DNA of 64,000 nucleotides from Marsupella aquatica (lineage: Eukaryota > Plantae > Marchantiophyta). The translations under genes and the position numbers were made by a program. Below are positions 1 to 38,020 of this stretch, in pieces. The stretch's first letter is position 1; each line of letters opens with the position of its first letter. The notes beneath the pieces are model-generated. The model did not search any database and was not told the origin of the DNA. It saw only the letters and a program-made list of their open reading frames with translations. The stretch spans positions 186,001-250,000 of the forward strand of contig OZ316891.1 of NCBI GenBank assembly GCA_973895155.1, written 5' to 3'.

Positions 1-2
1 AT

Positions 3-2880: not shown

Positions 2881-2957
2881 TGAAGAACATGTCACTCGCT
2901 TCTGATTCAATTCGGTCATGTCTTGTGGGGACACGGCGAAATTTAAGTGGAGGGCTA

Positions 2958-14820: not shown

Positions 14821-14834
14821 CTATATGAGGCAGA

Positions 14835-20510: not shown

Positions 20511-21553
20511 CCCTTCAGGCAGAAGGGTATGCATGTGACCGCCAAATTTATTCCCACTCTGCACACGGGGTTGATAGGTGGTTTTTGTATTGCCACCTCC
20601 ATACGATTGACCCTCATTTGCAGACCCCTGCGAGAGACCACTTGACTTGGCTATTGCTGGATGACACCTCCAGCGCCAGCAACAAAACAAGTGGATCAGC
20701 ACCAACAGGCTGAGCTAAATGAATCCAACATTGCACATCTCACATTTTGGACTTTTTAATGAAGTGGGCACCTCACTGTGCTGTCAACCATAGCTCAGAC
20801 ACACCCCGCTACAGTGAGCTATCGATCGACTTTGTGACTGCATAGTAAATTTGGATCTTGCTTTTTCAGTTCAGCCATACATGGTTCTGTCCTTATACTT
20901 TCGTACACGATGACACCTCCAAAACTAACTAAGTTAACTTATTTTTTGAAGACTGATTAAGTTAATTGCAATTTCAAAGTTAGGGCCTGCACAAGGATGT
21001 CTGTGTTTTTTCCACTTTGAGTGAATCATGTGTATGGCAAGAGACCATAACCGTGAAAGACTAAAGATTCCAAGCAGACTGTTGCCTGGAGTAAAACAAC
21101 ATGCATGCATTGGAGTATGAAAATACATATATAGCTCAAATTATGTATTTGTTTCTGCTCTTAACAAAGGTCATCTTAAGTCGTGTGCCTGACCCATACA
21201 TTTGTACAATTATAGATGTGACAGGAAATTGGGCAGTTGAATGATATCATTCTCAGTCCCCACCACTGTCACGTAAGATACAGGTATTCAAATGTGAATT
21301 CAGGCTATATGCAGACAAGACAATATAAAGGGCCACATGTATGCTATGTGTATACTGAAGTAGGCTGTCGCTCTACTTTCATCAATGTAATTACATGAAC
21401 ACATGGTGAAAATAATTTGACTGAAGAGTATATGGTTTGTCCTATAACTCCGTGCTGGGATTTACTGCATGTATTGACTTTCGATCTTGTCATGTGTGCC
21501 ACAATCAGGGAGCTAGAGTGCACTTTGTGTCATCAGAGAGCATTGGGCTGAAG

Positions 21554-24500
21554 TGTGGTGCGTCCCATGGCTCCCTAAACCCAAGAAACCCCCCAGCTCA
21601 AGCCGATTCCCGCAGGTTTCGTGCTTGGCGAGGCCGTTTCCGCGGCTTAGCGGCATGGGACGCTGCTAACCTTCTACTACTACTATTAACATTTTACACA
21701 CATATACTGGACAGATCCTTCATCGGGTCATGAGATACGTAGCCGGCCTAATATAGGCCTTCCCCTGTCTTCCCCTGTCTTCCCCTCCGTCTTGTTAGGT
21801 ATGTTTGGATTCCGCCGCCGGAATGATCCCCAATAGGCTTGGTTAAGCCGCTAAGACCTCTCTCAGCTCGACACATCCAACTCTCACTCCCCTGCTTACT
21901 TTCCTTCCTTCTGTTGATGTGGGCACTCTTCACACAAGTTAATGCGACACACAAATAGCAAAATGACTCATTCTGACTGAGTCATACCATGCACTTGCCA
22001 TACAAACAGTACATCTCATACACAAGTTCTGCGAACTAAGCCGTGAGGCCAACTCTATTCAGCTCTTAGGCATGAGGAAACATGAATATACACAAGGGTC
22101 ACTGTATGACTAACCGAGAGCTTCTCGTACTACTTGATCCCAGCCCGGCTGGTGCAAACTAAAAACTTGCTAAAGAAGAGGCCCTGAGCTCCCCGCTGCC
22201 CAGGTACTTATCCTGGTAGTGGATCCGCCATTCTTTGCATCGTAAGCCTAATCTACTTAACAGTAATCTACTTGCCCAAATCTACCTATGTACAGCAAGG
22301 CAGGAGCACAAGTGTTGCTCCTACCAGTGGGACCGCAATCCCACTAAGCTAAGTGTCAGGGCCGCTCCTGGTTCTGATCCTAATCCTAAACATGGAGATC
22401 CGTGCCCGCCCTGCCCACTCACGCCTCCTCCCTCCACGTCCGCCCTCCCTAAAAGGAACGGCGCCCTTGCACCGTCACGACACCGGTGGTGGATCCTCAA
22501 TGGACGCCCCCAACACTTCCTCCTCAGCCACTGCCGTTGGCCCGCCTACTGACAGATTACCTGCCCTTGACCGAGTCAACTCTCCATCGGCCTGACTGGG
22601 TCCACCTTCGGCTTCAGCCTCGACAACTCCCACGGCTTCGGCTTCAGCCAACCCCACGGCTTCGGCCTCCCCTTCCCCTAGGGTAGTTGGATCCTTAGCC
22701 GTGACCCTGTCTGGGGTCGGTGCTGGGTCTACCTCCTTGATCACCACGACCTGTGAAGTCGTATTACTCCTTGACCCTGAAGGTTTCCGCTTCTTCTTCG
22801 TTGGTGGCTCGGCAGCTGGTCCCTTCCCCTTCCCACTTACCTCCGGCACTGGTGCAGGTGGCGCGGCTTGTCCTTCGGCAATTACCACCCCTGGTAACTG
22901 GTTTGTCCCAACAGGAGATGGACCTGCTGCAGCTAAGCATTTAAATACTGCGGCTTGTTTCTTCAGCCGCTCTGTTTGGTTGTCGGCCCGCCGCTGTAGG
23001 TTCTCCATCTTCCTCGTGATTTCCTCCAACTCCTCTTGGGTTTCATCCAGGTCCTTACGTGCCCCCTCCAGCTCGTTTTTGGCCTCCTCCTGCTCCCTGT
23101 GGGCTTCCTCCAATTCCTTCTTCAAGGTAGCCTTCTCCTCCTGGGTTGCTCTTAGCTCCTTGTCGAGCTCTGCAATGATGACAGACTCCATCTGGTTCAT
23201 CTTGGCGTAAGTCTGTTCGAGCATCTCGTCCTTCTCCCTTAGGTCGGCCTTGAAGCTGGCCGTCAGGGACGCAAGCTCCTGCTGCAGCGCCATAATCCCT
23301 TGATAGGATTTCCCTAACTCGACCTCCTTCTGCTCAAGGGCTCCGCGGATTTTCTCGAGCTCCCCTTTCAACGCCCATTCCTTTCTTTGGGTCTCCGCCA
23401 TGGCCCGGCTGTTGGCTGTTATGTGGGCCTCCTCTGTATTCTTCAGCTCTTGCTTCCACTTTTCCCTTTCTTTGATCGTGTCGGCCAACTCTTCCTGCGT
23501 CTGAGTCAGTTTATCCTTGATATTCTGATTATCAGCCTGCACGGCGTCCAACTGCCCCTGCATGATGTTCAGCTCATGTCGTTTAATCCGCAGTTCATCT
23601 TGGGCTTTCTTGGCCGCCCTTAGATCTTCAATCTCGGCTCCCATCCTCCTAAGCCGCCGAATGACCTCGTCCTTCTTGCTTCTCTCTAAAGCCACCGCTT
23701 CTTCTAATTGGTGCTTCTCCAACTGCTCCCTATGGAAAAAGGGTCCTACCTCCAACTCCTCTCCAAAGATGCCGAGCGCAAGTTCCCCACACATCTCACC
23801 ATACTCCATGGCTCTATTCTTAGCGTAGGTGGAGTAAGTAGAAGTGATCGGCATCGCCCATCGTGGCCTCTGCTCCCAAGCCGTCCTGCGGATCTCTTCA
23901 ATCGTGGCTAGAGGTTTGCTTCCTTTTTCGGCTAGCCGCCTGATGTCCTCCGGCCAATCTCCTCCTGGTAAATCCTTTTCCTTAGCCAGGGCGGCCTCTT
24001 CCTCCTGCTTGATTCGCTCCTGAAATTCCTGCACCGTCTGTTTTATGCCGTCGAAGCTCGGGGGAGCAACATCTGGTGGGGGAGACTCAGGGCTACTCTG
24101 CTGGTTGGGGTCCCCTCGCACTACCCTTGGAAGTGTGGGGACAAACCGGCCACAGGTCCTTACTCCTGGAACGTGATGGTCCGACCCATAGCCGGAATTA
24201 TCATGGCTGCAGTCCTCCACTGCCTCCTCTACCTCTTGGATTTCCGGCTTCTCCCTCTCCTCTTCCTCGGTAGGAGCTTCAGGCAATTCTGCCTCAGATT
24301 CGGAGCTTGAGGTTCCCACGTACATTCGAACACCTGGCTTGGATTCCGGCCTGATTCTCTCCTTGTCTCCAGCAAAGGGGTTTTCTCTTGTGAGCCGGTG
24401 TAGGCCTACCTCTGTAGTAGTGTCCTGCATTGTTGCCGTTGCCGTTGTTGTTGCCGATGCCGATTTCTTTTCTTTCTCCAGTAGTTTCAGCAGACTCTGC

Positions 24501-26177
24501 ATGCCTGGTTGCTGCATCGGCAAGTCTTCCTTCCTGGGCCTAAACACCTGCTCGATCGTAGGACTAACAGGTGGTTGAGGCTTCTCAGCCAACGGCCTCG
24601 GTGTTGGAGCTTCCTCGGGTGCCCTTACCTGCAGGGGAAGTACCGGGGCAAAAGTCTGACCTCTGGCATACCGGCACAACAGCGGCATGTGATAGCCAAG
24701 CCGCGACACGCTCCCCATGCCGATTACCTGCTGCTCCTCCTTTAAGATCTTCTTCAATTGGTTGAGGAGGTACCCGTTGTAGTCCCGGCTTGGGTCTGGC
24801 CTTTCTGCCAGATAGACCTGTGCCTTGCCGATCTCTGCCCTCGGCAAGTTACAATGCATGGTCACCCGCAAGAAGTCGATCATCTCTCCTATGTGCGGGT
24901 TGGTGCAGGTGTTCCGGAAGAAGCCATTCTTCGTTGATGGCCCGGGGAACGACCGGAACTCCTTGTCAGGCAAGGTCTTCCTGGTATCAACTTTGGTCTT
25001 ATTGCCCATCGGCAAGCCAAACACTTCGGCAATTACCTTGGGAGTAAGATAGAAATCCTTCCCATATATCCTCGTGCAATTGGTCTCGGGTTCCCATGAC
25101 CCCACGAATTCTAATAGGTCTGACTCCGGTACCTCCGGCTTCAGCCATGGTAATCTTACAAAGGCCTCCAAGCCGGATCCGGCCATGAAGCCTTGGTACT
25201 TCTTGGTCTGCATGGCCGTAAAGCATGCATCCTCCTCCCGTGCAAAATGTAGTTGCACCTCCACCGGTAGGGTTGCCGCCCAGCCCTTCCAGGTGTCATC
25301 CCTGGTTGGAATGGCCTTGATGGGATCGACCTCCTCCTCTTCGGCTTCTCCCTGCCTCCTGCTCTGCTGCTCGGCTGGCTTCTTTGGTGCCGCCGACCTC
25401 GTTCTTTTTGCCGGGGTGGCTTCATCGTTGACGGCTCCCTTCCTCTTCATCTCTGCTGCCGTGGAGGTTTCTCCTAGCACCGTTGCCTGGGTCCACCTTT
25501 CCGTGCTACCCTTTAATTCCCAGTGGATGTCGTTGCAGTTCTTGATGGCCTCTCGGATGCCGACGACGCTGTCTTTGCAAAACAGAAGATCGTCGAGTTG
25601 ATTGGAAGTAGGCGTCCACAGGAACTCGTCCTTGATGAGTTCGCCTCCTAAGAAAGCCGTCTTGTGCAGCTCCCACAATTGAGCGAGCTCCTGCCGTTCT
25701 CGAGCTGCCCTTTCTGACTCCTCGTCCTCGTAAGTCTTGATGTACTCAGTTGCCCGTTCGAACAGGCATCCCCAGAAATGTGCCGCTTGATTGACGTTGC
25801 TCATACCCTCCTTAGGTTGATCGTCGGTATCTACTCTCTCCCCGAGTGCTTGCCTAAGCAGCTGACAGTAGTTGGCCTCCCGTAGTCGTCTGCCTAGTTC
25901 GTGCTCGCAAATGAGCCACCATCTCCTGCAAGCGCTCCTTACCCCTCTCCTCTGCCGGTCCTTCTTCCCGTTGATCCTTCCTAGCCGCCGACGCTTAACG
26001 CGCCCTAACCCTAATCGGGTTTTCACCCTTAGCCTTACCTCCGGCCTCTGCCCGGGTTCCATGGTTGCCCCTAATTGTTTATATTTTCCTTGTTTTGTCA
26101 CTATACTAAGGTGTTCCTAGGGTGCCTTCCTGCTTTACCCACTTAACCGGCCGAGTGATTCCTGTCTAGGCATCACA
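21554..26177 (-). repeat. 3' LTR of family A, 4,624 bp
   Basis: Direct repeat of 32402-37025 at offset 10,848; about 8 substitutions found by eye. Confidence 0.97.
22475..26101 (-). CDS. LTR-encoded 1208-aa protein (first ATG at 26062): PMD/Transposase_32-like domain plus long coiled coil
   Basis: Uninterrupted 3.6-kb ORF; FYLTPKVIAEVFGLP motif; E/K/Q heptad-rich C-terminal third; basic NLS-like KRKG and KKKRK. Confidence 0.85.
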   Translation of the reverse strand: MTKQGKYKQLGATMEPGQRPEVRLRVKTRLGLGRVKRRRLGRINGKKDRQRRGVRSACRRWWLICEHELGRRLREANYCQLLRQALGERVDTDDQPKEGMSNVNQAAHFWGCLFERATEYIKTYEDEESERAARERQELAQLWELHKTAFLGGELIKDEFLWTPTSNQLDDLLFCKDSVVGIREAIKNCNDIHWELKGSTERWTQATVLGETSTAAEMKRKGAVNDEATPAKRTRSAAPKKPAEQQSRRQGEAEEEEVDPIKAIPTRDDTWKGWAATLPVEVQLHFAREEDACFTAMQTKKYQGFMAGSGLEAFVRLPWLKPEVPESDLLEFVGSWEPETNCTRIYGKDFYLTPKVIAEVFGLPMGNKTKVDTRKTLPDKEFRSFPGPSTKNGFFRNTCTNPHIGEMIDFLRVTMHCNLPRAEIGKAQVYLAERPDPSRDYNGYLLNQLKKILKEEQQVIGMGSVSRLGYHMPLLCRYARGQTFAPVLPLQVRAPEEAPTPRPLAEKPQPPVSPTIEQVFRPRKEDLPMQQPGMQSLLKLLEKEKKSASATTTATATMQDTTTEVGLHRLTRENPFAGDKERIRPESKPGVRMYVGTSSSESEAELPEAPTEEEEREKPEIQEVEEAVEDCSHDNSGYGSDHHVPGVRTCGRFVPTLPRVVRGDPNQQSSPESPPPDVAPPSFDGIKQTVQEFQERIKQEEEAALAKEKDLPGGDWPEDIRRLAEKGSKPLATIEEIRRTAWEQRPRWAMPITSTYSTYAKNRAMEYGEMCGELALGIFGEELEVGPFFHREQLEKHQLEEAVALERSKKDEVIRRLRRMGAEIEDLRAAKKAQDELRIKRHELNIMQGQLDAVQADNQNIKDKLTQTQEELADTIKEREKWKQELKNTEEAHITANSRAMAETQRKEWALKGELEKIRGALEQKEVELGKSYQGIMALQQELASLTASFKADLREKDEMLEQTYAKMNQMESVIIAELDKELRATQEEKATLKKELEEAHREQEEAKNELEGARKDLDETQEELEEITRKMENLQRRADNQTERLKKQAAVFKCLAAAGPSPVGTNQLPGVVIAEGQAAPPAPVPEVSGKGKGPAAEPPTKKKRKPSGSRSNTTSQVVVIKEVDPAPTPDRVTAKDPTTLGEGEAEAVGLAEAEAVGVVEAEAEGGPSQADGELTRSRAGNLSVGGPTAVAEEEVLGASIEDPPPVS

Positions 26178-29100
26178 TAGCTCCCCACTTAATTGTGAAG
26201 CGTCCTCGCGAACAACTTCATCTTCGTCCATATAGTATTTCTTGAGGTGGTCATAATGGATGCGAACTGGATATACCTCTCCCGTAATGTTGGCCAATTG
26301 CACGGAGCCATTGGGGAACATCATGGTTACTCTAAAGGGTCCTAACCAGCGAGTGTAAAGCTTTCCTGGAAACCTACTATACCTACTGTCATAAAGTAGC
26401 ACAAGATCACCGGTATGAACACTAACTACTTTTAACCTTTTATCATACTGCTGCTTCATGATATTCTGTCTATATTCTACTCTCTCGGCTGAAATCATTC
26501 TCGCTTCCTCTAAAGCTTCTAACCTATATTCTCGCTCCTTTAGGCTCTCCTCCGCTGAGGCTCTTTCCTCAATTGTAACTTGAAATGTCGGTATCTCAAG
26601 TTGCATGGGTACCAGGGCTTCTTGTCCAAAGGTTAAGAAGAAGGGTGTATGACCGGTAGTGGATTTATAGGCCAGATTGTAAGCAAAAACAGCAGCAAAC
26701 AATTTATCATCCCAATCGAGTTTGTTCTGAGCTACTGTCTTGTTCAATATCTTTCCTATGATTCCGTTTGCTCGTTCTGTCAACCCGTTTGCCTTTGGAT
26801 GGTAGGGAGTAGTAGGCCTATGTTTAACTAAATACTGCTCATTTAAACGACTAATTATATCATTCAAAAAATGGGTTCCTCTATCACTAACTAATTCTAG
26901 GGGTGCTCCATACCTGGTGAAGATCTGCTCATACATGAATCTAGCCGTAGTAATTGCATCATCCTTCGTTGTTGGTCTGGCCTCTACCCATTTAGTTGCA
27001 TAATCCGTAGCCAGGATTATGTACTTGTTCCGTCGAGGGTGGGTCAGTGGTTTCAGAGGTCCAATGTAATCAATACCCCACTTCTCGAATGGTGCCAGAG
27101 GTAGAATAGGGTGCAGTGGATGCCTGGTGGACGCCCTTGGTCCTCCCGCTCGTTGACAAGGATCGCATTGTTTGATAAACTGATAGACATCTTTGTGCAA
27201 GGTGGGCCACCAGTAACCGGCATTTAATATCTTCTTAGACGTGGTTACTGGGGCAAAATATCCTCCGGCCTCCTCTCCATGCATGGCCCGTAGGACTCGT
27301 TTTACCTCTCTCTTCTCCAAACACCTTTGAATCGTGCCGTTGATTCCATGCTTGTGCAGTATGCCTTTAATGCACTGATATTGTCTGACCTTCCGCACAA
27401 AGACTGCGGCTTGCTCTCGGCTTAATCCTGGCTGTAATCTGGAAGTGCTGAGAAATTGTAAAATCTCAGGGTACCATGTACCAGCTATTTCCACAACGAA
27501 TAGCTCCTCGTCGGGGAATCGATCATCGATGCAATCTGTGGCAGGTTTACCTGTGATCCTTGAAAAGAAGTCGGCATTGGCATGTAACTTTCCTGGCTTG
27601 ATCCTCAGCTCATAGTCAAACTCCTGTAATAGCAAAATCCATCTTGCTACTCTGCCTGTAAGGTCCGGCTTATTGACTAGGTACTTCAAACTTTCATGAT
27701 CAGTATGAAAGATTACCTTGTACCCTAGTAAATAATGCCTAAACTTTTTACAAGAATAAATGACTCCTAATGCTTCTCTTTCCGTGGTAGAGTAGTTCCG
27801 TTCGGCATCGGCAAGCTGACGGCTTGCGAAGTATATGGGATGGTCCCTTCCTTTCTCATCCAACTGACTTAGTACTGAGCCAATACAGAAGCCCGAGACA
27901 TCTACAAAAACATGAAAATCTTTGTTCCAGTCCGGTGCTATCATGACTGGGGCCTCTACTAACATCTGCTTCAATTCTACCACCGCTGTGACTCGTTCGG
28001 GTGTGGGTTCGAAGTCTGCTCCTGCCTTGAGCATATTGGTTAATGGTAAAGCTAGCTTGGCAAAATCCTTGATGAACCGGCGATAGTAACCAATGCATCC
28101 CAAGAAGGATCTTACATCCTTTATGTTCTTAGGTTGCATGATATCTAGCCATACTGCTAGCTTACCTTTGTCAATCTCAATGCCCTTCCTTGATACCTTG
28201 TGACCTAGTAGCACCCCCTCGGTTACTGCAAAAAAACATTTATCTGGGTGTAACTTGAGACCCACCTCCCTACATCTCATGAAGGTTTTCCTGAGGTATT
28301 TAGCATGTTTCGATGCCTTCCCGAATACTGCAAAGTCATCAATGAAGATTTCCATGAACTTTCTCAAGTAATCATGAAAAATGTTCACCATTAATCGTTG
28401 GAACATAGCTGGTGCGTTGCAGAGTCCAAACGGCATACGATTGAAGACATAGATCCCCCATTCCGTGATGAAGGCCGTCTTGATTTGGTCTTCCTGCCAA
28501 ATCCTGATTTGGTTATAACCAGAGTATCCATCCATGAATGAATATAGTTCATGACTGGCTACCATGTCTAGTACCATATCAGTAAACGGTAAAGGAAAAT
28601 GGTCTTTTAATGTTGCTTCATTCAGCTTCCTGTAATCCTGACAAACCCGGATCTTGGGTTTACCATCGGGTCCAGCTTTCTTGGGAACTATCACAATTGG
28701 AGACACCCAGTCTGAATGCAGGACTGGAGTGATGAATCCAGCTTCCACTAGTTTGTCGATTTCTGTTTTGACTAGCAGGGAATACTTCGGGTTCATCCTT
28801 CGAATTGGTTGTCGAAATGATTTGGCTCCTAACATGAGATCAATTCGATGTTCCCCTAGTGTTGGATCTACGCCCTTTAGATCTTGGTGACTCCATGCAA
28901 ACACATCCTGAAATTCAATCAATAAGTCACTGATCTCTTTCTCGAGCTCAGGTGCTAGGTTTCTCCCTAAGTTCAGTTCTCTTCCCTCTCCTAAGTCGAG
29001 CTTCCGATATTGCCGTGCTTGGATCATATTAATCTGCTTCTTCAAATTCGGGTCCAGTTCGGCTTCCAGTCTCTCTAATCTCATACCTCCATAAACTGGG

Positions 29101-29432
29101 ATCTCGGCTGGACTAGCCGAGTCGGTCCCTTCCTTGGTGTCCATAGATTGTCCCCTTACCGGTCTATTCGGTTTTGAATTAGTGGTCGGCTCCCCTTCCT
29201 GCCTTGGCTCTGGATCTTGTCTGTCCATCTCATCCACCTCTTGCTCCTGAGAGTTAGGCCGCTGTGCTCTCTCGGCTTCTAATAGGGCCTCAATTTGTTC
29301 TGCCCTCGTAATCGGCTTGTATGCCGATCCCTTGGTATTTAATTCCTTGCCGATGATCGATGGCGTTGTGGACCCCGTCGGCTCTGCCACAACGCCTGCA
29401 GAAAATCCACTGTCCCTGCTACTGCTCCCCAC
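26166..29432 (-). CDS. pol: Pol: reverse transcriptase, RNase H, integrase
   Basis: RVCQDYRKLN, MPFGLCNAP, FIDD, DVSG...EREALG...TDH, H/C zinc region, WGIDYIGP...SDRG...TERAN, WLGPF. Confidence 0.97.
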   Translation of the reverse strand: MGSSSRDSGFSAGVVAEPTGSTTPSIIGKELNTKGSAYKPITRAEQIEALLEAERAQRPNSQEQEVDEMDRQDPEPRQEGEPTTNSKPNRPVRGQSMDTKEGTDSASPAEIPVYGGMRLERLEAELDPNLKKQINMIQARQYRKLDLGEGRELNLGRNLAPELEKEISDLLIEFQDVFAWSHQDLKGVDPTLGEHRIDLMLGAKSFRQPIRRMNPKYSLLVKTEIDKLVEAGFITPVLHSDWVSPIVIVPKKAGPDGKPKIRVCQDYRKLNEATLKDHFPLPFTDMVLDMVASHELYSFMDGYSGYNQIRIWQEDQIKTAFITEWGIYVFNRMPFGLCNAPAMFQRLMVNIFHDYLRKFMEIFIDDFAVFGKASKHAKYLRKTFMRCREVGLKLHPDKCFFAVTEGVLLGHKVSRKGIEIDKGKLAVWLDIMQPKNIKDVRSFLGCIGYYRRFIKDFAKLALPLTNMLKAGADFEPTPERVTAVVELKQMLVEAPVMIAPDWNKDFHVFVDVSGFCIGSVLSQLDEKGRDHPIYFASRQLADAERNYSTTEREALGVIYSCKKFRHYLLGYKVIFHTDHESLKYLVNKPDLTGRVARWILLLQEFDYELRIKPGKLHANADFFSRITGKPATDCIDDRFPDEELFVVEIAGTWYPEILQFLSTSRLQPGLSREQAAVFVRKVRQYQCIKGILHKHGINGTIQRCLEKREVKRVLRAMHGEEAGGYFAPVTTSKKILNAGYWWPTLHKDVYQFIKQCDPCQRAGGPRASTRHPLHPILPLAPFEKWGIDYIGPLKPLTHPRRNKYIILATDYATKWVEARPTTKDDAITTARFMYEQIFTRYGAPLELVSDRGTHFLNDIISRLNEQYLVKHRPTTPYHPKANGLTERANGIIGKILNKTVAQNKLDWDDKLFAAVFAYNLAYKSTTGHTPFFLTFGQEALVPMQLEIPTFQVTIEERASAEESLKEREYRLEALEEARMISAERVEYRQNIMKQQYDKRLKVVSVHTGDLVLLYDSRYSRFPGKLYTRWLGPFRVTMMFPNGSVQLANITGEVYPVRIHYDHLKKYYMDEDEVVREDASQLSGELCDA
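26178..26190 (-). promoter_or_regulatory. Polypurine tract AAGTGGGGAGCTA (inside the integrase reading frame)
   Basis: Directly abuts the TG of the 3' LTR. Confidence 0.85.
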
Positions 29433-32332
29433 TTAGCCGTTTCATCCAATTGGTCTACTTCCTTAACTTCCTCCGGAATTGCAGCTAAAAAGGTGGATTC
29501 TATTGTAAAGCAGTCCTCGACCTCTTCGTCTTCTTCTTCCAAGTCACCTTCCATTGGTTCTTGCCATAATCCGCTGGGGGGTACCTCTGGTCCAAAGACA
29601 CCTTCTTCGGTTAGGTTAGTGAAGCATTCTAACCAACGTACTTCATCGGCTGACTCCAGTCCACTATCGTACCCATCTACTTCCCTTATGCTTTTCCTAC
29701 GGTCATCCTTAGTGTCCCAGGATACCGTGATAGAGGGGGTCCCGAAAGTGAACTGCTTTTTACCCCAATCTTCTATTACCTCGGCTAGGTACAGCCATGG
29801 CCTACCAATCAATAGCCGGAATGACGTAGGATTTACCGGCTTCATTACTACATAGTTAATGCTAAAGAAGATACCTCCTATCTCTGTCTTGATGCCGGTT
29901 AACACTCCCGTCGGAATGACCTGATATCCATTGGCCATGTTCAACACTCTTCCAGTCATCTCCGGTGTTAGACCCCACCCTTTTGCTGTTGAATCAATCA
30001 TAATACATACCCCTGATCCTCCATCGATGGGTACCCGTAGTAATAATTCTCCTTGAATCATTAATGGTAATGCTGGGGCTCCTTGATCTTCTTCTATCAT
30101 TAGTACGTCGGATCTGGTTGCTACCTTGGGTAATCTCGGCTTGCCGAGAATAGCCTTCCTTAATTGCTTCCGGAAGTACGGGCTATTTTTCAATAGTTGA
30201 CCTACTGTTGCCGAGACTCTAGATTCTAGTACATCTTTAGCCAGGTCATAGGGAACAATCGGCTTCTCTTCTGGTGGTGTTTCCGTCTTGGATTCGGCCA
30301 GTTTTGCCACGCTAGTCTCCACAGCTGTTGGGTCTTCCGAAGCAAACAATGCTTTTGCTCGTTTTACATCCTTGGCAATGGCTTCGGTATTCTCCAGGGT
30401 TTCTAATTCTCTTAGTTGTTCCTTAACACTAGCCGTAACAGAGGGGTAGAACAACTTAGGATGATCTCGATTGAAGTCGCTATCTTGTGAAGGATTGGTT
30501 TCACTGGTGGGCTCATGGCTTACCTGTATTGCCGGAGCCCTCCCTTCTCCTTCTGTTGATGTTGACGAAGAGTCGATCCTTTCCTCCGTAACCTTCCCTT
30601 TATTTTTGGCCAGCCCATCCCACCTTTCCTTCCTTCTGGTAGATCGAGTAGAGACCCGGTAGCAATCATGATCTAAATCCTCCTCTGAGAAGGTTGATAG
30701 GGCTTCGGCCTCATCATCAGATGGTACGAACTCTGCCTCGGCATCCTCTTGCCATCCTAGTTCGATGTGGTTGATTTGAACTCCTCCGGGGGTAGTACCT
30801 GGCGGTAAGATCTTGATCGGCAAAAGCTTATGATTTGCGGCCAGGCCTGCCAACCAAGTAGGACATTGCCCTAGCATATGACCTTCCTGTCGGCATCCCA
30901 TACATAGCTGAGCTGGTTGTCCATCACCCTGTTTGCGTGCATTCGGGCATTCTCTAGCAAAATGGCCAGGTTGACCACAATTATAGCACGCCGCAAATCT
31001 TTGCACATTCGGCCTAGGAGGTACTGACGGGTTCTGAATAATCCGAGGATACATCTCTCCTGGATTGTTCCTTAACCCTGACCACAGAGATGCAGGTCTG
31101 TTGGATAGGTCTCGTGCTCCAGTCTCACTGATGCCGAAAACACTATCAGCGGCATCTCCCAAAAAGTACTCTACTTCTCCCTGACATGGTCTGATCTCGG
31201 CCACATGTCGAACATGATTAGTATTAAGCTTAGGACAAGCATCTTTATGGTGTCCGGTTTTATAACATAAGGCACACCATACAGAGCTATCCTCCTGTAC
31301 TACCTTCTTCTTTGGTTTTACCTCTGCAATGATAGCCTTAAGTTGCTCGGTAAGGGCTACGATGTTATCTGGTGGCTTAGCCTCCATCTTGACTTTTGTC
31401 TTCCCTCTCCTTCTGCCCTTCCTTTTCCTAGTTTTTTCTTCTTCAAAACTAGAAGATGACTCACTCTTGCTACTCCCACTATCCGAGCTTGACTTATCAC
31501 TTCTAGACTTCTTGGAATGTTTCTTCTTCTTATCTTTTTTCTTATGGGGTGATCCCTCCTCTGATGAGGAACTCTCAGACTTAAGCTGTTTCTTCCGGCT
31601 TGTGATATCTGCATTAATGTATAATTGAATATCCTTAATTGCTTCGGCTAAGGTCTCCGGGTTCTCCTTCCTAATTGCAAAACTCATCTTCTGTGGCAAA
31701 GCATTCACCAACCATTGAAGTTGCATACCTTCAGATGCATTGGTCTTTGTACGTCTTACCAGTTTTTGAAAGCGTTGCAAGAACTTCCTGAAGGATTTGT
31801 TCTCCTTGAACCGAAGTTGTCCCAACTTCAGCACTGCTAGTTCTGAAGTTCCAATGGGTCGAAACTCCTTAACAAAGAGTGTTTTGAAGATATCCCAGAT
31901 GGCTTGATCTTCCACATCTAATGCTCTGTACCAAGGCCTAGCCTCACCCTTGAACAGGCCGGGAAGAATCTGCATCTTGATGGCCGATTCTCCATTTGCT
32001 GCAGCGGTTCCCTCGAAATCATCCAACCATTCGTCCGGATCCTCATCTCCTCTCCCATGAAATGCCTTGTAATGTATGCGCGACCGCTGGCTCAATCTGG
32101 TCCCTGGCCTCTCGTCTGGCCGTGCCTCTGGTTCCCCCATGTCGGTTGGAGACTCACTTCTCCTTACCGACTCTTCTTCTGGTATGTCTTCTTCGACGCC
32201 ACTTCCAGTTTCGGAGCTACCAGCTCTTTCTGCCCCTCTCAGTCGCTGTGTATCATGCCACCCGGCGAGCTGCTGCAGTCGAGCTCTCTCCCGTTGAATC
32301 ACTCTTTCTTCCCTCGGCGTAAGGTCAGTCAT
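29339..32332 (-). CDS. gag: Gag-protease polyprotein
   Basis: Capsid FHGRGDEDPDEWLDDFE; three CCHC knuckles; protease IDGGSG...LIGRPWL. Confidence 0.95.
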   Translation of the reverse strand: MTDLTPREERVIQRERARLQQLAGWHDTQRLRGAERAGSSETGSGVEEDIPEEESVRRSESPTDMGEPEARPDERPGTRLSQRSRIHYKAFHGRGDEDPDEWLDDFEGTAAANGESAIKMQILPGLFKGEARPWYRALDVEDQAIWDIFKTLFVKEFRPIGTSELAVLKLGQLRFKENKSFRKFLQRFQKLVRRTKTNASEGMQLQWLVNALPQKMSFAIRKENPETLAEAIKDIQLYINADITSRKKQLKSESSSSEEGSPHKKKDKKKKHSKKSRSDKSSSDSGSSKSESSSSFEEEKTRKRKGRRRGKTKVKMEAKPPDNIVALTEQLKAIIAEVKPKKKVVQEDSSVWCALCYKTGHHKDACPKLNTNHVRHVAEIRPCQGEVEYFLGDAADSVFGISETGARDLSNRPASLWSGLRNNPGEMYPRIIQNPSVPPRPNVQRFAACYNCGQPGHFARECPNARKQGDGQPAQLCMGCRQEGHMLGQCPTWLAGLAANHKLLPIKILPPGTTPGGVQINHIELGWQEDAEAEFVPSDDEAEALSTFSEEDLDHDCYRVSTRSTRRKERWDGLAKNKGKVTEERIDSSSTSTEGEGRAPAIQVSHEPTSETNPSQDSDFNRDHPKLFYPSVTASVKEQLRELETLENTEAIAKDVKRAKALFASEDPTAVETSVAKLAESKTETPPEEKPIVPYDLAKDVLESRVSATVGQLLKNSPYFRKQLRKAILGKPRLPKVATRSDVLMIEEDQGAPALPLMIQGELLLRVPIDGGSGVCIMIDSTAKGWGLTPEMTGRVLNMANGYQVIPTGVLTGIKTEIGGIFFSINYVVMKPVNPTSFRLLIGRPWLYLAEVIEDWGKKQFTFGTPSITVSWDTKDDRRKSIREVDGYDSGLESADEVRWLECFTNLTEEGVFGPEVPPSGLWQEPMEGDLEEEDEEVEDCFTIESTFLAAIPEEVKEVDQLDETAKWGAVAGTVDFLQALWQSRRGPQRHRSSARN
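29349..29408 (-). promoter_or_regulatory. Putative -1 ribosomal frameshift signal (G GAU UUU plus pseudoknot)
   Basis: Heptamer 29408-29402 in the gag frame, 5-nt spacer, 10-bp stem GGCGTTGTGG/CCACAACGCC, loop GCCGA complementary to downstream TCGGC; pol is in the -1 frame. Confidence 0.7.
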
Positions 32333-32379
32333 TACCTACGCTTCCGTTCTAACTTCATATCTCACGGCTTAAGAAATGC

Positions 32380-32397
32380 CCCCTCCATCTAGCGCCA
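32380..32397 (-). promoter_or_regulatory. Primer-binding-site-like TGGCGCTAGATGGAGGGG
   Basis: TGG-initiated, 4 nt after the 5' LTR; primer tRNA not assigned. Confidence 0.75.
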
Positions 32398-32401
32398 AAA
32401 A

Positions 32402-35400
32402 TGTGGTGCGTCCCATGGCTCCCTAAACCCAAGAAACCCCCCAGCTCAAGCCGATTCCCGCAGGTTTCGTGCTTGGCGAGGCCGTTTCCGCGGCTTAGCG
32501 GCATGGGACGCTGCTAACCTTCTACTACTACTATTAACATTTTACACACATATACTGGACAGATCCTTCATCGGGTCATGAGATACGTAGCCGGCCTAAT
32601 ATAGGCCTTCCCCTGTCTTCCCCTGTCTTCCCCTCCGTCTTGTTAGGTATGTTTGGATTCCGCCGCCGGAATGATCCCCAATAGGCTTGGTTAAGCCGCT
32701 AAGACCTCTCTCAGCTCGACACATCCAACTCTCACTCCCCTGCTTACTTTCCTTCCTTCTGTTGATGTGGGCACTCTTCACACAAGTTAATGCGACACAC
32801 AAATAGCAAAATGACTCATTCTGACTGAGTCATACCATGCACTTGCCATACAAACAGTACATCTCATACACAAGTTCTGCGAACTAAGCCGTGAGGCCAA
32901 CTCTATTCAGCTCTTAGGCATGAGGAAACATGAATATACACAAGGGTCACTGTATGACTAACCGAGAGCTTCTCGTACTACTTGATCCCAGCCCGGCTGG
33001 TGCAAACTAAAAACTTGCTAAAGAAGAGGCCCTGAGCTCCCCGCTGCCCAGGTACTTATCCTGGTAGTGGATCCGCCATTCTTTGCATCGTAAGCCTAAT
33101 CTACTTAACAGTAATCTACTTGCCCAAATCTACCTATGTACAGCAAGGCAGGAGCACAAGTGTTGCTCCTACCAGTGGGACCGCAATCCCACTAAGCTAA
33201 GTGTCAGGGCCGCTCCTGGTTCTGATCCTAATCCTAAACGTGGAGATCCGTGCCCGCCCTGCCCACTCACGCCTCCTCCCTCCACGTCCGCCCTCCCTAA
33301 AAGGAACGGCGCCCTTGCACCGTCACGACACCGGTGGTGGATCCTCAATGGACGCCCCCAACACTTCCTCCTCAGCCACTGCCGTTGGCCCGCCTACTGA
33401 CAGATTACCTGCCCTTGACCGAGTCAACTCTCCATCGGCCTGACTGGGTCCACCTTCGGCTTCAGCCTCGACAACTCCCACGGCTTCGGCTTCAGCCAAC
33501 CCCACGGCTTCGGCCTCCCCTTCCCCTAGGGTAGTTGGATCCTTAGCCGTGACCCTGTCTGGGGTCGGTGCTGGGTCTACCTCCTTGATCACCACGACCT
33601 GTGAAGTCGTATTACTCCTTGACCCTGAAGGTTTCCGCTTCTTCTTCGTTGGTGGCTCGGCAGCTGGTCCCTTCCCCTTCCCACTTACCTCCGGCACTGG
33701 TGCAGGTGGCGCGGCTTGTCCTTCGGCAATTACCACCCCTGGTAACTGGTTTGTCCCAACAGGAGATGGACCTGCTGCAGCTAAGCATTTAAATACTGCG
33801 GCTTGTTTCTTCAGCCGCTCTGTTTGGTTGTCGGCCCGCCGCTGTAGGTTCTCCATCTTCCTCGTGATTTCCTCCAACTCCTCTTGGGTTTCATCCAGGT
33901 CCTTACGTGCCCCCTCCAGCTCGTTTTTGGCCTCCTCCTGCTCCCTGTGGGCTTCCTCCAATTCCTTCTTCAAGGTAGCCTTCTCCTCCTGGGTTGCTCT
34001 TAGCTCCTTGTCGAGCTCTGCAATGATGACAGACTCCATCTGGTTCATCTTGGCGTAAGTCTGTTCGAGCATCTCGTCCTTCTCCCTTAGGTCGGCCTTG
34101 AAGCTGGCCGTCAGGGACGCAAGCTCCTGCTGCAGCGCCATAATCCCTTGATAGGATTTCCCTAACTCGACCTCCTTCTGCTCAAGGGCTCCGCGGATTT
34201 TCTCGAGCTCCCCTTTCAACGCCCATTCCTTTCTTTGGGTCTCCGCCATGGCCCGACTGTTGGCTGTTATGTGGGCCTCCTCTGTATTCTTCAGCTCTTG
34301 CTTCCACTTTTCCCTTTCTTTGATCGTGTCGGCCAACTCTTCCTGCGTCTGAGTCAGTTTATCCTTGATATTCTGATTATCAGCCTGCGCGGCGTCCAAC
34401 TGCCCCTGCATGATGTTCAGCTCATGTCGTTTAATCCGCAGTTCATCTTGGGCTTTCTTGGCCGCCCTTAGATCTTCAATCTCGGCTCCCATCCTCCTAA
34501 GCCGCCGAATGACCTCGTCCTTCTTGCTTCTCTCTAAAGCCACCGCTTCTTCTAATTGGTGCTTCTCCAACTGCTCCCTATGGAAAAAGGGTCCTACCTC
34601 CAACTCCTCTCCAAAGATGCCGAGCGCAAGTTCCCCACACATCTCACCATACTCCATGGCTCTATTCTTAGCGTAGGTGGAGTAAGTAGAAGTGATCGGC
34701 ATCGCCCATCGTGGCCTCTGCTCCCAAGCCGTCCTGCGGATCTCTTCAATCGTGGCTAGAGGTTTGCTTCCTTTTTTGGCTAGCCGCCTGATGTCCTCCG
34801 GCCAATCTCCTCCTGGTAAATCCTTTTCCTTAGCCAGGGCGGCCTCTTCCTCCTGCTTGATTCGCTCCTGAAATTCCTGCACCGTCTGTTTTATGCCGTC
34901 GAAGCTCGGGGGAGCAACATCTGGTGGGGGAGACTCAGGGCTACTCTGCTGGTTGGGGTCCCCTCGCACTACCCTTGGAAGTGTGGGGACAAACCGGCCA
35001 CAGGTCCTTACTCCTGGAACGTGATGGTCCGACCCATAGCCGGAATTATCATGGCTGCAGTCCTCCACTGCCTCCTCTACCTCTTGGATTTCCGGCTTCT
35101 CCCTCTCCTCTTCCTCGGTAGGAGCTTCAGGCAATTCTGCCTCAGATTCGGAGCTTGAGGTTCCCACGTACATTCGAACACCTGGCTTGGATTCCGGCCT
35201 GATTCTCTCCTTGTCTCCAGCAAAGGGGTTTTCTCTTGTGAGCCGGTGTAGGCCTACCTCTGTAGTAGTGTCCTGCATTGTTGCCGTTGCCGTTGTTGTT
35301 ACCGATGCCGATTTCTTTTCTTTCTCCAGTAGTTTCAGCAGACTCTGCATGCCTGGTTGCTGCATCGGCAAGTCTTCCTTCCTGGGCCTAAACACCTGCT

Positions 35401-37025
35401 CGATCGTAGGACTAACAGGTGGTTGAGGCTTCTCAGCCAACGGCCTCGGTGTTGGAGCTTCCTCGGGTGCCCTTACCTGCAGGGGAAGTACCGGGGCAAA
35501 AGTCTGACCTCTGGCATACCGGCACAACAGCGGCATGTGATAGCCAAGCCGCGACACGCTCCCCATGCCGATTACCTGCTGCTCCTCCTTTAAGATCTTC
35601 TTCAATTGGTTGAGGAGGTACCCGTTGTAGTCCCGGCTTGGGTCTGGCCTTTCTGCCAGATAGACCTGTGCCTTGCCGATCTCTGCCCTCGGCAAGTTAC
35701 AATGCATGGTCACCCGCAAGAAGTCGATCATCTCTCCTATGTGCGGGTTGGTGCAGGTGTTCCGGAAGAAGCCATTCTTCGTTGATGGCCCGGGGAACGA
35801 CCGGAACTCCTTGTCAGGCAAGGTCTTCCTGGTATCAACTTTGGTCTTATTGCCCATCGGCAAGCCAAACACTTCGGCAATTACCTTGGGAGTAAGATAG
35901 AAATCCTTCCCATATATCCTCGTGCAATTGGTCTCGGGTTCCCATGACCCCACGAATTCTAATAGGTCTGACTCCGGTACCTCCGGCTTCAGCCATGGTA
36001 ATCTTACAAAGGCCTCCAAGCCGGATCCGGCCATGAAGCCTTGGTACTTCTTGGTCTGCATGGCCGTAAAGCATGCATCCTCCTCCCGTGCAAAATGTAG
36101 TTGCACCTCCACCGGTAGGGTTGCCGCCCAGCCCTTCCAGGTGTCATCCCTGGTTGGAATGGCCTTGATGGGATCGACCTCCTTCTCTTCGGCTTCTCCC
36201 TGCCTCCTGCTCTGCTGCTCGGCTGGCTTCTTTGGTGCCGCCGACCTCGTTCTTTTTGCCGGGGTGGCTTCATCGTTGACGGCTCCCTTCCTCTTCATCT
36301 CTGCTGCCGTGGAGGTTTCTCCTAGCACCGTTGCCTGGGTCCACCTTTCCGTGCTACCCTTTAATTCCCAGTGGATGTCGTTGCAGTTCTTGATGGCCTC
36401 TCGGATGCCGACGACGCTGTCTTTGCAAAACAGAAGATCGTCGAGTTGATTGGAAGTAGGCGTCCACAGGAACTCGTCCTTGATGAGTTTGCCTCCTAAG
36501 AAAGCCGTCTTGTGCAGCTCCCACAATCGAGCGAGCTCCTGCCGTTCTCGAGCTGCCCTTTCTGACTCCTCGTCCTCGTAAGTCTTGATGTACTCAGTTG
36601 CCCGTTCGAACAGGCATCCCCAGAAATGTGCCGCTTGATTGACGTTGCTCATACCCTCCTTAGGTTGATCGTCGGTATCTACTCTCTCCCCGAGTGCTTG
36701 CCTAAGCAGCTGACAGTAGTTGGCCTCCCGTAGTCGTCTGCCTAGTTCGTGCTCGCAAATGAGCCACCATCTCCTGCAAGCGCTCCTTACCCCTCTCCTC
36801 TGCCGGTCCTTCTTCCCGTTGATCCTTCCTAGCCGCCGACGCTTAACGCGCCCTAACCCTAATCGGGTTTTCACCCTTAGCCTTACCTCCGGCCTCTGCC
36901 CGGGTTCCATGGTTGCCCCTAATTGTTTATATTTTCCTTGTTTTGTCACTATACTAAGGTGTTCCTAGGGTGCCTTCCTGCTTTACCCACTTAACCGGCC
37001 GAGTGATTCCTGTCTAGGCATCACA
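32402..37025 (-). repeat. 5' LTR of family A, 4,624 bp
   Basis: Direct repeat of 21554-26177. Confidence 0.97.
33323..36949 (-). CDS. Second intact copy of the LTR-encoded 1208-aa protein
   Basis: Six amino-acid differences from the 22475-26101 copy. Confidence 0.85.
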   Translation of the reverse strand: MTKQGKYKQLGATMEPGQRPEVRLRVKTRLGLGRVKRRRLGRINGKKDRQRRGVRSACRRWWLICEHELGRRLREANYCQLLRQALGERVDTDDQPKEGMSNVNQAAHFWGCLFERATEYIKTYEDEESERAARERQELARLWELHKTAFLGGKLIKDEFLWTPTSNQLDDLLFCKDSVVGIREAIKNCNDIHWELKGSTERWTQATVLGETSTAAEMKRKGAVNDEATPAKRTRSAAPKKPAEQQSRRQGEAEEKEVDPIKAIPTRDDTWKGWAATLPVEVQLHFAREEDACFTAMQTKKYQGFMAGSGLEAFVRLPWLKPEVPESDLLEFVGSWEPETNCTRIYGKDFYLTPKVIAEVFGLPMGNKTKVDTRKTLPDKEFRSFPGPSTKNGFFRNTCTNPHIGEMIDFLRVTMHCNLPRAEIGKAQVYLAERPDPSRDYNGYLLNQLKKILKEEQQVIGMGSVSRLGYHMPLLCRYARGQTFAPVLPLQVRAPEEAPTPRPLAEKPQPPVSPTIEQVFRPRKEDLPMQQPGMQSLLKLLEKEKKSASVTTTATATMQDTTTEVGLHRLTRENPFAGDKERIRPESKPGVRMYVGTSSSESEAELPEAPTEEEEREKPEIQEVEEAVEDCSHDNSGYGSDHHVPGVRTCGRFVPTLPRVVRGDPNQQSSPESPPPDVAPPSFDGIKQTVQEFQERIKQEEEAALAKEKDLPGGDWPEDIRRLAKKGSKPLATIEEIRRTAWEQRPRWAMPITSTYSTYAKNRAMEYGEMCGELALGIFGEELEVGPFFHREQLEKHQLEEAVALERSKKDEVIRRLRRMGAEIEDLRAAKKAQDELRIKRHELNIMQGQLDAAQADNQNIKDKLTQTQEELADTIKEREKWKQELKNTEEAHITANSRAMAETQRKEWALKGELEKIRGALEQKEVELGKSYQGIMALQQELASLTASFKADLREKDEMLEQTYAKMNQMESVIIAELDKELRATQEEKATLKKELEEAHREQEEAKNELEGARKDLDETQEELEEITRKMENLQRRADNQTERLKKQAAVFKCLAAAGPSPVGTNQLPGVVIAEGQAAPPAPVPEVSGKGKGPAAEPPTKKKRKPSGSRSNTTSQVVVIKEVDPAPTPDRVTAKDPTTLGEGEAEAVGLAEAEAVGVVEAEAEGGPSQADGELTRSRAGNLSVGGPTAVAEEEVLGASIEDPPPVS

Positions 37026-37093
37026 TGAAGCATTGAGGGACAGGCAACGCGGGCACTGGTATTTCTCTATTGGCTTTTATTACAGGAGGCATC

Positions 37094-38020
37094 ATGCCTT
37101 CCAAACGGAAGCGTGAACTTGTCCCCCTTCCAACTTCCCAGTGTGCTCCCATCTTCCAAGGGGTCAGAGTCTTTTTTGTCCCAGGTATTCAGAGTGCAAG
37201 ATTGGATATCCTTAGGAGAAAACTCATTGAGTGTCACGGTATAGAGACACAATCTCAACTACAGGACACTGAAGTCACCCATATTATTGCAGAAACATGG
37301 GAACATTGTCTGAAAATGGCATCTTGGTCGGTTTTCTATGACAAAGTCTTCTTGAGGCATGTCAAAATACTTTCAGCAGAATGGATGTCTGACTCCCTTA
37401 GAAAAGGGAGTGTCCAAGATCCTGATGATTACAATTTGTTTGAGAGCAAGTACAATAGCGTCCAAATGATGAAAGACAGTCGAGATTGGCACAAGGCTCG
37501 TAGAATTGCAGGGAGAGGTGGGAGTAGGGTTCTGTCTATTGACCAGATCACAAAAGTATACAACAACATTATCCCATATGAGACAGAACCCATCCCAGAC
37601 CGTACCATGTTCAGAGGTGTGAGGGCTGTTATACTTGACAAGTCTATCAAGCCATATAGGGTCTGTCGTTTCAAGAGGGAGATCAGTAGAAGAGGTGGTA
37701 CAGTGATTGAGAAGCTCACTAATGAGACCACCCATCTCATTGCTCATTCATATTCTAAGGCATGCCGACAGTATGGAAAGTCCACAGTACGATGGCTCAT
37801 CACACATGGGCTGCGTGTGGTCTGCCCTGAATGGGTCAGGCAGTCACTTTCAACAAATATGCGATTAGATGAGCATAAATATGATTTATATGAAATATGG
37901 CCAGCAAAGCCATTCATTCCCTATGACGACCCAAAATATGTTACTTCTGAGTTCCAGACCACGGATGAAGAGTTTTCTGATAGTGCGTATGATTCTGTTA
38001 GCCCTAATGATTATGAATAA
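37094..38020 (+). CDS. Tandem BRCT-domain protein (DNA polymerase lambda-like BRCT) inside the CACTA
   Basis: Two repeats: IFQGVRVFFV...VTHIIA...SAEWMSDSL and MFRGVRAVIL...TTHLIA...CPEWVRQSL; N-terminal MPSKRKR. Confidence 0.8.
   Translation: MPSKRKRELVPLPTSQCAPIFQGVRVFFVPGIQSARLDILRRKLIECHGIETQSQLQDTEVTHIIAETWEHCLKMASWSVFYDKVFLRHVKILSAEWMSDSLRKGSVQDPDDYNLFESKYNSVQMMKDSRDWHKARRIAGRGGSRVLSIDQITKVYNNIIPYETEPIPDRTMFRGVRAVILDKSIKPYRVCRFKREISRRGGTVIEKLTNETTHLIAHSYSKACRQYGKSTVRWLITHGLRVVCPEWVRQSLSTNMRLDEHKYDLYEIWPAKPFIPYDDPKYVTSEFQTTDEEFSDSAYDSVSPNDYE

Follow-up and report, generated by a model that had tools for sequence, protein, structure and literature searches.

A liverwort Ty3/gypsy retrotransposon with a long accessory gene inside both long terminal repeats and a predicted VANC-like fold in its product

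A 64,000-nucleotide stretch of the genome of the liverwort Marsupella aquatica (GCA_973895155.1, contig OZ316891.1, positions 186,001 to 250,000, forward strand; hereafter the window, whose coordinates are used unless a locus is named) contains an intact, recently inserted non-chromovirus Ty3/gypsy retrotransposon, element A, in which a long open reading frame (ORF) lies within both long terminal repeats (LTRs). That the ORF truly resides in the LTR is as good as certain, that it belongs to a real gene family is open to little doubt, and the conserved domain of its product is very probably of the VANC/PMD-type fold, as judged from a structural model. We give roughly even chances to the whole reading proposed here, in which the LTR bears a captured accessory gene whose product would be a nuclear, VANC-like DNA-binding protein that keeps its own family transcribable. 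Long LTRs and extra ORFs are already known; what appears new, within the literature searched, is a long ORF in both LTRs of a plant Ty3/gypsy element, together with the VANC-like fold.

The top self-match in a BLAST comparison of the window with itself is an ungapped direct repeat of 99.8% identity. The LTR length of 4,624 bp given in a first-pass annotation of the window was borne out, with TG...CA ends, the target site duplication (TSD) TGAAG and the primer-binding site (PBS), as well as the polypurine tract (PPT), all at those boundaries:

32402-37025, minus strand: 5' LTR of element A, 4,624 bp, TG...CA
21554-26177, minus strand: 3' LTR of element A, 4,624 bp, TG...CA, with eight substitutions relative to the 5' LTR
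21549-21553, plus strand: left copy of the TSD TGAAG (5 bp)
37026-37030, plus strand: right copy of the TSD TGAAG (5 bp)
32380-32397, minus strand: PBS TGGCGCTAGATGGAGGGG, beginning 4 nt past the 5' LTR
26178-26213, minus strand: PPT, adjoining the 3' LTR and overlapping the last pol codons
29339-32332, minus strand: gag-protease ORF, 997 aa, with Retrotrans_gag and zf-CCHC (Pfam) and a protease-like motif at about aa 769
26166-29432, minus strand: pol frame with reverse transcriptase, RNase H and integrase

The PBS, which appears as TGGCGCTAG in the clade comparison, is of what we take to be the tRNA-Asn type, and the PPT has a conserved upstream motif common to related elements; pol reads through the PPT to a stop 12 nt inside the 3' LTR. 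The gene order, gag and then protease, reverse transcriptase, RNase H and integrase, is that of Ty3/gypsy elements, and a Pfam scan of pol, which ends at the LTR, detected no chromodomain family and one RNase H region only, without a second RNase H of archaeal type. The interior is nearly all coding within a total of 15.5 kb. The gag-protease and pol ORFs overlap by 94 nt (29339-29432) in different frames, so that the break falls after the protease and not before it. Because the LTRs differ at eight sites only, all transitions (seven of them inside the ORF, six non-synonymous and one synonymous), the insertion is very recent, and the intactness of the ORF in both LTRs is therefore no evidence of selection. 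Contigs from other runs agree with these boundaries: one, from another organism's run, tracks the first 270 nt of the LTR and departs at 37025, one matches the flank from 37026 onward without element A, and three contig joints stop at 32402. The architecture is solid.

Each LTR of element A holds a stop-free frame of 1,213 codons, the longest frame in 300 shuffles of the LTR being 337 codons, and the corresponding ORF is laid out as follows:

33323-36910, minus strand: LTR ORF, 5' LTR, 1,195 aa from the first ATG (LTR position 116); the GTG version starts at 36949, and Met87 is at 36652
22475-26062, minus strand: LTR ORF, 3' LTR, intact, with Met87 at 25804
35471-36163 (5' LTR copy) and 24623-25315 (3' LTR copy), minus strand: conserved domain, about aa 250-480
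33791-34573, minus strand: E/K/R/Q-rich, proline-poor stretch, about aa 780-1040, a putative coiled coil from its composition

The first-pass annotation had described a 3,627-bp ORF of 1,208 aa making the LTR 78% coding. The frame is indeed open in both LTRs, but that length needs a GTG start at LTR position 77; the first ATG gives 1,195 aa, or 77.6% of the LTR, and the likely start at Met87 (LTR position 374) gives 1,109 aa, or 72%. The homologue in a second element of the window (element B, described below) and a homologous Calypogeia protein both begin at the position equivalent to Met87. Residues 87-200 resemble the Calypogeia homologue (4 of 2,000 shuffles reach the score), no similarity to it was found in the first 86 codons (338 of 2,000), and the start of the element B ORF resembles it as well (0 of 2,000). 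Since a direct comparison of the element A and element B starts gave no similarity (661 of 2,000 shuffles), Met87 is the likely start but not a proven one. From Met87 the protein consists of a helical N-terminal region, the conserved domain, a Pro/Ser/Glu-rich linker, the putative coiled coil, a motif KKKRK resembling a nuclear localization signal (NLS) at about aa 1090, and a low-complexity tail. No transmembrane segment was found in it (highest 19-residue hydropathy 0.82), which rules out an env-like membrane protein, and we regard a sub-cut-off Pfam match to ATG16 (E 0.005) as noise from the coiled coil. As the first-pass annotation had proposed, the accessory gene is duplicated at every transposition, which follows from its lying within the LTR.

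A model of the conserved domain built from 23 sequences reached a predicted local distance difference test score (pLDDT) of 77 and a predicted template modeling score (pTM) of 0.74, as against a pLDDT of 37 for the single-sequence model. In Foldseek its top match was VANC21-DNA (template modeling score, TM, 0.50; E 0.48; other listed rows <=0.17), and VIA-align superposed it on VANC21 with a Z of 9.0 and a root-mean-square deviation (rmsd) equal to 4.0 over 213 aligned residues; among 48,161 PDB chains, VANC21 was the only one with Z>=2 (Z 8.7, rmsd 3.9, 209 aligned). A search of a viral fold library returned no match, and a PDB sequence search returned nothing credible. A language-model atlas gave sub-threshold hits (0.85-0.88, to be taken as leads only) to Transposase_32, ATHILA ORF-1, DUF1985 and PMD. 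The fold is a strong lead, and its identification is new relative to the first-pass annotation, which had left the protein unnamed.

The published work on such proteins offers several points of comparison. VANC proteins carry DUF1985 and bind short motifs accumulated in the non-coding parts of their own transposon, and they remove DNA methylation (PMC5735166), and DUF1985/VANC resembles the PMD of MAIN/MAIL1 (10.1101/2024.09.27.615353; PMC13547354). With VANC21 (PDB 9lnj/9lnk) the LTR ORF protein shares the predicted fold over about 210 residues, its status as a transposon-encoded accessory protein, and variable low-complexity regions. VANC and the Athila domain have been modeled as coiled-coil oligomers, VANC21 among them (PMC13547354), and the element A protein has a coiled coil suggested by composition. 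MAIN, MAIL1, MAIL2 and the PMD-A of Ogre/Tat, the last of which is retrotransposon-encoded, fall in the same structural neighborhood (PMC13547354; 10.1101/2024.09.27.615353). However, the protein is VANC-like and not a VANC, being encoded in a Ty3/gypsy LTR instead of a VANDAL/MuDR DNA transposon, and it comes from a non-seed plant, VANC having been described as specific to dicots (PMC13547354).

The central domain of the LTR ORF was found three more times in the window by tblastn. The related elements and fragments in the window are these:

7553-14399, minus strand: element B, of a decayed related family, with LTR starts at 14399 and 9919 and an integrase 62% identical to that of element A
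14830-15900, plus strand: element C, comprising the pol end, PPT, LTR start (15130) and N-terminal part of a homologous ORF
45980-46813, plus strand: fragment D, the conserved domain of a homologous ORF

In element B both LTRs carry the homologous ORF, which begins 475 nt from the LTR start (Met at 9445; the 3' copy has four in-frame stops), and the end of the element B pol carries the same PPT motif as element A. The conserved domains of A and B are 27% identical over 182 aa (BLASTP, E 2e-18). Fragment D is probably the rest of element C, a single LTR having been split by a CACTA insertion. The gene family is under purifying selection while residing in LTRs, because the ratio of non-synonymous to synonymous divergence (dN/dS) between the B and D ORFs is 0.12 (bootstrap 0.07-0.18, 250 codons; two shifted frames give 1.38 and 1.65) and because, over the N-terminal part, the proportion of non-synonymous differences between B and C (pN 0.28) lies far below that of synonymous ones (pS 0.80). 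The two LTRs of element B compared with each other give 0.72 (0.44-1.28), as expected of drift after insertion. In four of four runs the summed contig depth for the LTR ORF exceeds that for gag 2.8-4.0-fold, which would fit solo LTRs or fragments retaining the ORF; depth is not copy number, and this is not used as evidence for solo LTRs. A search of sequencing runs listed no RNA run with the sequence, which speaks neither for nor against expression.

Outside the window, the best named pol relatives of element A are liverwort sequences (Calypogeia fissa, Riccia sorocarpa and Marchantia), and two of ten LTR-domain homologues looked up bore a name, both being from Calypogeia fissa. A full HMMER scan with the LTR ORF domain gave 20 matches, of which three with multiple short repeats were omitted from the alignment; word-indexed protein searches with the LTR ORF matched none of 358 and none of 2,883 candidates, and a metagenome scan with the domain matched none of 77 stretches. 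An integrase scan of metagenome contigs yielded 80 loci, all of which were scanned for the PPT motif and 22 of which were read downstream of pol. Four loci (L001, L003, L004 and L007) have the PPT motif and TG directly after pol, followed by a homologous ORF, which places that ORF putatively in the LTR; in L007 the 870 nt past the ORF contain no second PPT (best score 1.7, compared with 25.9 for the true PPT of element A). Locus L005 instead has pol, a G-tract without TG, a homologous ORF of 741 aa, a true PPT and an LTR of about 1.0 kb ending at the PBS, and L020 has an in-frame fusion of integrase with a homologous domain (a weak match, E 0.004), a linker, a coiled coil and an acidic tail. 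This L020 pol (1-4713, plus strand) extends in frame by about 1,000 aa as an integrase-accessory fusion before a PPT and an LTR of about 0.55 kb ending at the PBS. A G-tract plus downstream ORF is also found in L002 and L006; the tracts right after pol in L005 (3735-3770) and L002 (2290-2325) lack TG and differ in motif type from the terminal PPT. Such a tract could be a central PPT and a stepping stone to LTR extension. A TGGCGCCG-type PBS is carried by L004, L005, L014 and L015, and that of L004 and L005 is presumably of Athila type.

The homology of the two sets of ORFs is indicated by hhalign of the A/B domain with the L002-L007 domain (probability 87.6, E 3.5e-6, 164 columns) and by a profile built without window sequences, which matches the element A LTR ORF at E 0.005 among 6,119 segments; a profile drawn only from the copies in the window missed L005. 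The six LTR-type rows make up a single group on integrase trees, with support of 95/95 (31 rows) and 91/92 (14 rows), while L005, L002 and L020 fall outside it, and forcing A and B together with L005 and L002 is rejected by the approximately unbiased (AU) test (p-AU 0.007). On the 31-row tree the seed-plant matches, given without lineage labels, lie outside the bryophyte group. Short LTRs with an internal ORF in other family members had been put forward by the first-pass annotation as counting against its reading, and that layout does exist in the distant L005 and L020, but not in the LTR-ORF group on the tree. Because L005 and L020 lie outside this group, their layout looks like the ancestral state rather than a refutation. 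It is probable that the accessory gene, of Athila type on the preferred reading, was captured into the LTR from an internal position, and the simplest history, reasonably supported, is a single capture through a shift of plus-strand priming to the PPT at the end of pol. The 921 nt past the element A ORF approximate the whole LTR of L005 in size, and a possible relic lies at their start:

33286-33319, minus strand: possible decayed PPT, weak, starting 4 nt past the ORF stop

A motif scan of the element A LTR found exactly two TATA-like sites, and four relatives have motif-rich non-coding LTR DNA:

36926-36931 (copy 26078-26083), minus strand: TATA-like site 1, LTR position 95, upstream of the ORF
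32597-32603 (copy 21749-21755), minus strand: TATA-like site 2, LTR position 4423, 200 nt short of the LTR end
L001 2626-3127, L004 6148-6661 and L007 4337-5207: motif-rich non-coding LTR DNA, CCGGA-type
L003 2389-3157: motif-rich non-coding LTR DNA, ACGGAA

The first-pass annotation had used a TATA-like sequence near 21750 to place the ORF in the unique 3' region (U3). The site is real, but the placement is not settled by it, because a second TATA-like site lies upstream of the ORF. Such an upstream site occurs in five of seven distinct LTR heads (A, B, L001, L003 and L004; not C or L007); in L005 there is one 100 nt before the end of the short LTR and none between pol and the internal ORF. 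We favor a two-promoter arrangement in which the gene forms a self-contained unit within U3, and consider it somewhat more likely than not that the gene has its own promoter there. A TAGGGTT/AAACCC sequence at 36850-36870 (minus strand), between the upstream TATA and Met87, is presumably a telomere box-like motif. In the non-coding LTR DNA of L001, L003, L004 and L007 a repeated short motif is enriched (0-6 of 200 shuffles reach it), as VANC targets are in their own transposons; these motifs are candidate binding sites of the element's own protein. The element B head and L005 showed no significant repeated motif (200 shuffles).

Coding sequence inside an LTR, duplicated on reverse transcription, is a feature of mouse mammary tumor virus (MMTV) sag and human immunodeficiency virus (HIV) nef, in which an upstream ORF overlaps the PPT/LTR edge; these genes are about 1 kb or less, lie partly outside the LTR, and rely on splicing or an internal promoter for expression from the 3' copy. 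In contrast, the element A ORF encodes an unrelated protein, is three times longer and lies wholly within the LTR. Among plant elements, extra ORFs are described as internal, 5' or 3' of the polyprotein (PMC7264820; PMC6317226; PMC11728184), in agreement with what the first-pass annotation had said of plant gypsy elements, and their function is treated as an open question in PMC7264820 and PMC6317226. Plant LTRs of up to 5-6.5 kb are known and, in the portions consulted of PMC6317226, PMC6431247 and PMC1142308, are not described as coding. A literature search, mostly of papers outside subscription, brought up, among the papers listed, no plant Ty3/gypsy element with a long ORF in both LTRs and no VANC-like fold in a retrotransposon ORF. 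The closest likeness is to Athila (ORF-1 PF03078/Transposase_32 PF20167), with which element A shares Ty3/gypsy order, the lack of an archaeal RNase H and of a chromodomain, a 5-bp TSD, and a sense accessory ORF downstream of pol; for the product of this ORF there are language-model leads of 0.87-0.88 to these domains and no Pfam match. The sunflower Athila 3' ORF has Transposase_32 and an NLS (PMC11728184), comparable with the NLS-like motif here. However, the ORF of element A lies downstream of the PPT, inside both LTRs, and not between pol and PPT as in the relative L005; its LTRs are 4.6 kb long and 72-78% coding, with pol ending inside the LTR; and it lacks the tRNA-Asp PBS, which is typical of Athila rather than strict (a label based in part on PMC1142308). 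Element A thus appears to work like an Athila-type element with a 3' accessory gene, lacking the internal-ORF and PBS features. The Tat clade (TatI-III, Ogre, Retand) is defined by an additional archaeal-type RNase H (PMC6317226), whereas element A has a single RNase H region. Phygy and Selgy are short elements, defined by phylogeny, in which the polyprotein fills the internal part (PMC6317226); the interior of element A is likewise nearly all coding, but the element is 15.5 kb long with an extra ORF. Multi-kilobase LTRs and accessory genes with their own promoter exist in other plant elements: the Ogre LTR measures 1.9-6.5 kb, Diaspora and Retrosat2 also have long LTRs, and Grande gene23 has its own promoter and a nuclear product; as described in these sources, the extra ORFs are internal (Ogre, Grande) or absent (Diaspora), unlike that of element A (PMC6431247; PMC1142308; PMC7264820).

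These data allow a model of how such an element could have arisen and may function. The ancestor would have had pol followed by the accessory ORF, a PPT and a short LTR. With plus-strand priming shifted to a PPT located where pol ends, everything downstream of the new PPT, that is the gene, the old PPT region and the old LTR of about 0.9-1 kb, would have become the new LTR and been copied to both ends. In the present element the upstream promoter (TATA at LTR position 95) would make an accessory mRNA and the downstream promoter (LTR position 4423) the gag-pol/genomic RNA, a transcript map that we infer and that would put the gene in U3. The VANC-like domain may then bind short motifs in the non-coding LTR DNA of the family, the coiled coil may oligomerize, and silencing of the family could be relieved in trans. 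We infer that the LTR ORF protein is likely a nuclear DNA-binding self-regulator, and to an anti-silencing or activating role in particular we give no better than even odds. A bolder and rather doubtful extension would be that, in a bryophyte Ty3/gypsy lineage, an anti-silencing gene of VANC-like type was brought into the LTR together with its own promoter, such that each solo LTR left behind by recombination in the host would act in trans as an independent anti-silencing gene whose target sites lie on the same DNA. If so, each insertion would give two copies of the gene, solo-LTR formation, the chief means by which hosts remove retrotransposons, would strengthen the family rather than disarm it, and the extra ORFs of Athila type, long without explanation, would represent VANC's counterpart in retrotransposons and perhaps its source.

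Several observations weigh against this model. The Foldseek E-value for VANC21 is only 0.48, identity to it is 8-11%, and a Z below about 13 can reflect an arrangement common in helical folds; none of the 23 aligned homologues of the domain matches a Pfam family at a useful E-value. A shared fold shows no function, and PMD/MAIN proteins of the same fold are tied both to silencing and to protection from silencing. Element A itself has no significant repeated motif, its best (CGGCTTA, four copies in 991 nt) being reached by 29 of 200 shuffles. The LTR position of the ORF in L001, L003, L004 and L007 follows from the PPT and TG motif alone, their contigs holding neither a second LTR nor a TSD. 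As to the route of capture, the G-tract after pol in L005 differs in motif type from that locus's terminal PPT, and the decayed-PPT candidate, although it has the best PPT-matrix score in the LTR (8.5), falls within the shuffle range (mean maximum 7.4, highest 12.6). The integrase trees are midpoint-rooted, the group used in the AU test was named after the first tree had been seen, and the 14-row support is below the tool's star level. Finally, dN/dS across copies, proposed by the first-pass annotation as a check, speaks for selection in the homologous window copies (0.12) but not in element A's own family, where, among the 40 best-supported of about 1,560 variant rows, 8 of 17 LTR ORF variants are synonymous compared with 34% expected (p=0.19); the same rows give 9 of 11 for pol (p=0.002) and 6 of 11 for gag (p=0.13).

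An alternative transcript map, to which we assign a minor share of the probability, makes the upstream TATA the main promoter, with a U3 of about 120 nt and the ORF in a repeat region (R) of about 4 kb, or in R and the unique 5' region (U5), at the front of the genomic RNA, gag-pol being expressed from a second transcript or a spliced one. In line with this, five of seven LTR heads have TATA-like sites upstream of the ORF, and by eye a T/G-rich stretch resembling a plant 3' end lies at LTR position ~4080-4250, before the second TATA, which, if used, would truncate the genomic RNA before an R placed past position 4450. However, so long an R requires minus-strand strong-stop DNA of about 4.5 kb and suppressed 3'-end formation in the 5' LTR, and the L005 TATA, 100 nt before the LTR end much as site 2 is in element A, suggests that site 2 is the inherited main promoter. 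About equally unlikely, in our estimate, is that the protein, though functional and nuclear, tethers the pre-integration complex or particle to chromatin, or is a structural or oligomeric partner of integrase or Gag. The in-frame fusion to integrase in L020 (whose domain match is weak, E 0.004) and the lack of a significant repeated target motif in element A fit this role, and accessory ORF proteins have been proposed to aid nuclear import or insertion preference (PMC7264820; PMC11728184). Self-regulation is preferred over tethering in that the sole solved structure with the fold is a sequence-specific DNA-binding anti-silencing factor, four relatives have motif-rich non-coding LTR DNA, and a separate upstream promoter suits a trans-acting regulator.

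It is less probable again that the gene is a relaxed passenger, functional in ancestors and intact in element A only through recent amplification of the family, as might be read from the six non-synonymous changes among seven LTR-to-LTR ORF differences and from family variants that are not significantly rich in synonymous changes. Yet the 1,213-codon frame has stayed open though family copies range to <90% identity, and, among 12 of the 41 indel rows, the ORF has only two, which form a +1/-1 pair separated by 4 nt, compared with four in the non-coding LTR tail. None of the 17 listed ORF variants lies in the conserved domain, most of the non-synonymous ones being in the low-complexity C-terminal region, and close homologues are under strong selection. 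Very improbable, and largely refuted, is a reading of the 4.6-kb repeat as no LTR but a product of local duplication or misassembly around an element with short LTRs and an internal ORF, a layout that distant relatives do show: TG...CA, the 5-bp TSD, PBS and PPT coincide exactly with the 4,624-bp boundaries, eight sites differ between the two copies, contigs from other runs depart from the window sequence exactly at 37025 and 32402, and element B independently repeats the layout.

With the LTR-borne accessory gene as the preferred reading, element A offers an intact, recently active, high-copy example with a testable lead on the function of extra ORFs, namely a fold so far known only from VANC21, an anti-silencing factor. 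An LTR could on this view be mostly coding and persist as a unit through solo-LTR formation, and relatives on both sides of the transition suggest a route to an enlarged U3 by a shift of the PPT. Genes of this kind will be missed, or taken for host genes, where annotation assumes LTRs to be non-coding; the annotation of a liverwort genome lists two homologues of the LTR domain as unnamed proteins.

As to its surroundings, element A sits inside a CACTA/EnSpm transposon, and the window contains further mobile-element remnants:

17143-45950: CACTA/EnSpm transposon, bounded by matching 31-bp ends that start CACTA and by a 3-bp AGC duplication
38414-40321: Transposase_21 ORF of the CACTA element
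40339-41265: DUF4218 ORF of the CACTA element
37094-38020, plus strand: 308-aa ORF, intact and encoding two BRCT domains (Pfam E 1e-13), within the CACTA element and 68 nt from the element A insertion site
3-1724 and 4695-5549, plus strand: fragments of related gag-protease genes, 27-29% identical to element A gag
55091-56236 (plus strand) and 61631-62778 (minus strand): inverted pair, 87% identical
46948-47987 and 62802-63826: inverted pair, 73% identical
49499-51079 (minus strand) and 3598-4292: ORF fragments with Cys/His patterns

A BRCT cargo seems unusual in a CACTA element. The inverted pairs, which look like a further repeat family, contain ORFs of up to 348 aa in which no Pfam family was found. 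The fragments with Cys/His patterns resemble DNA transposase remnants, Mutator-like by eye; the one tested had no Pfam match.

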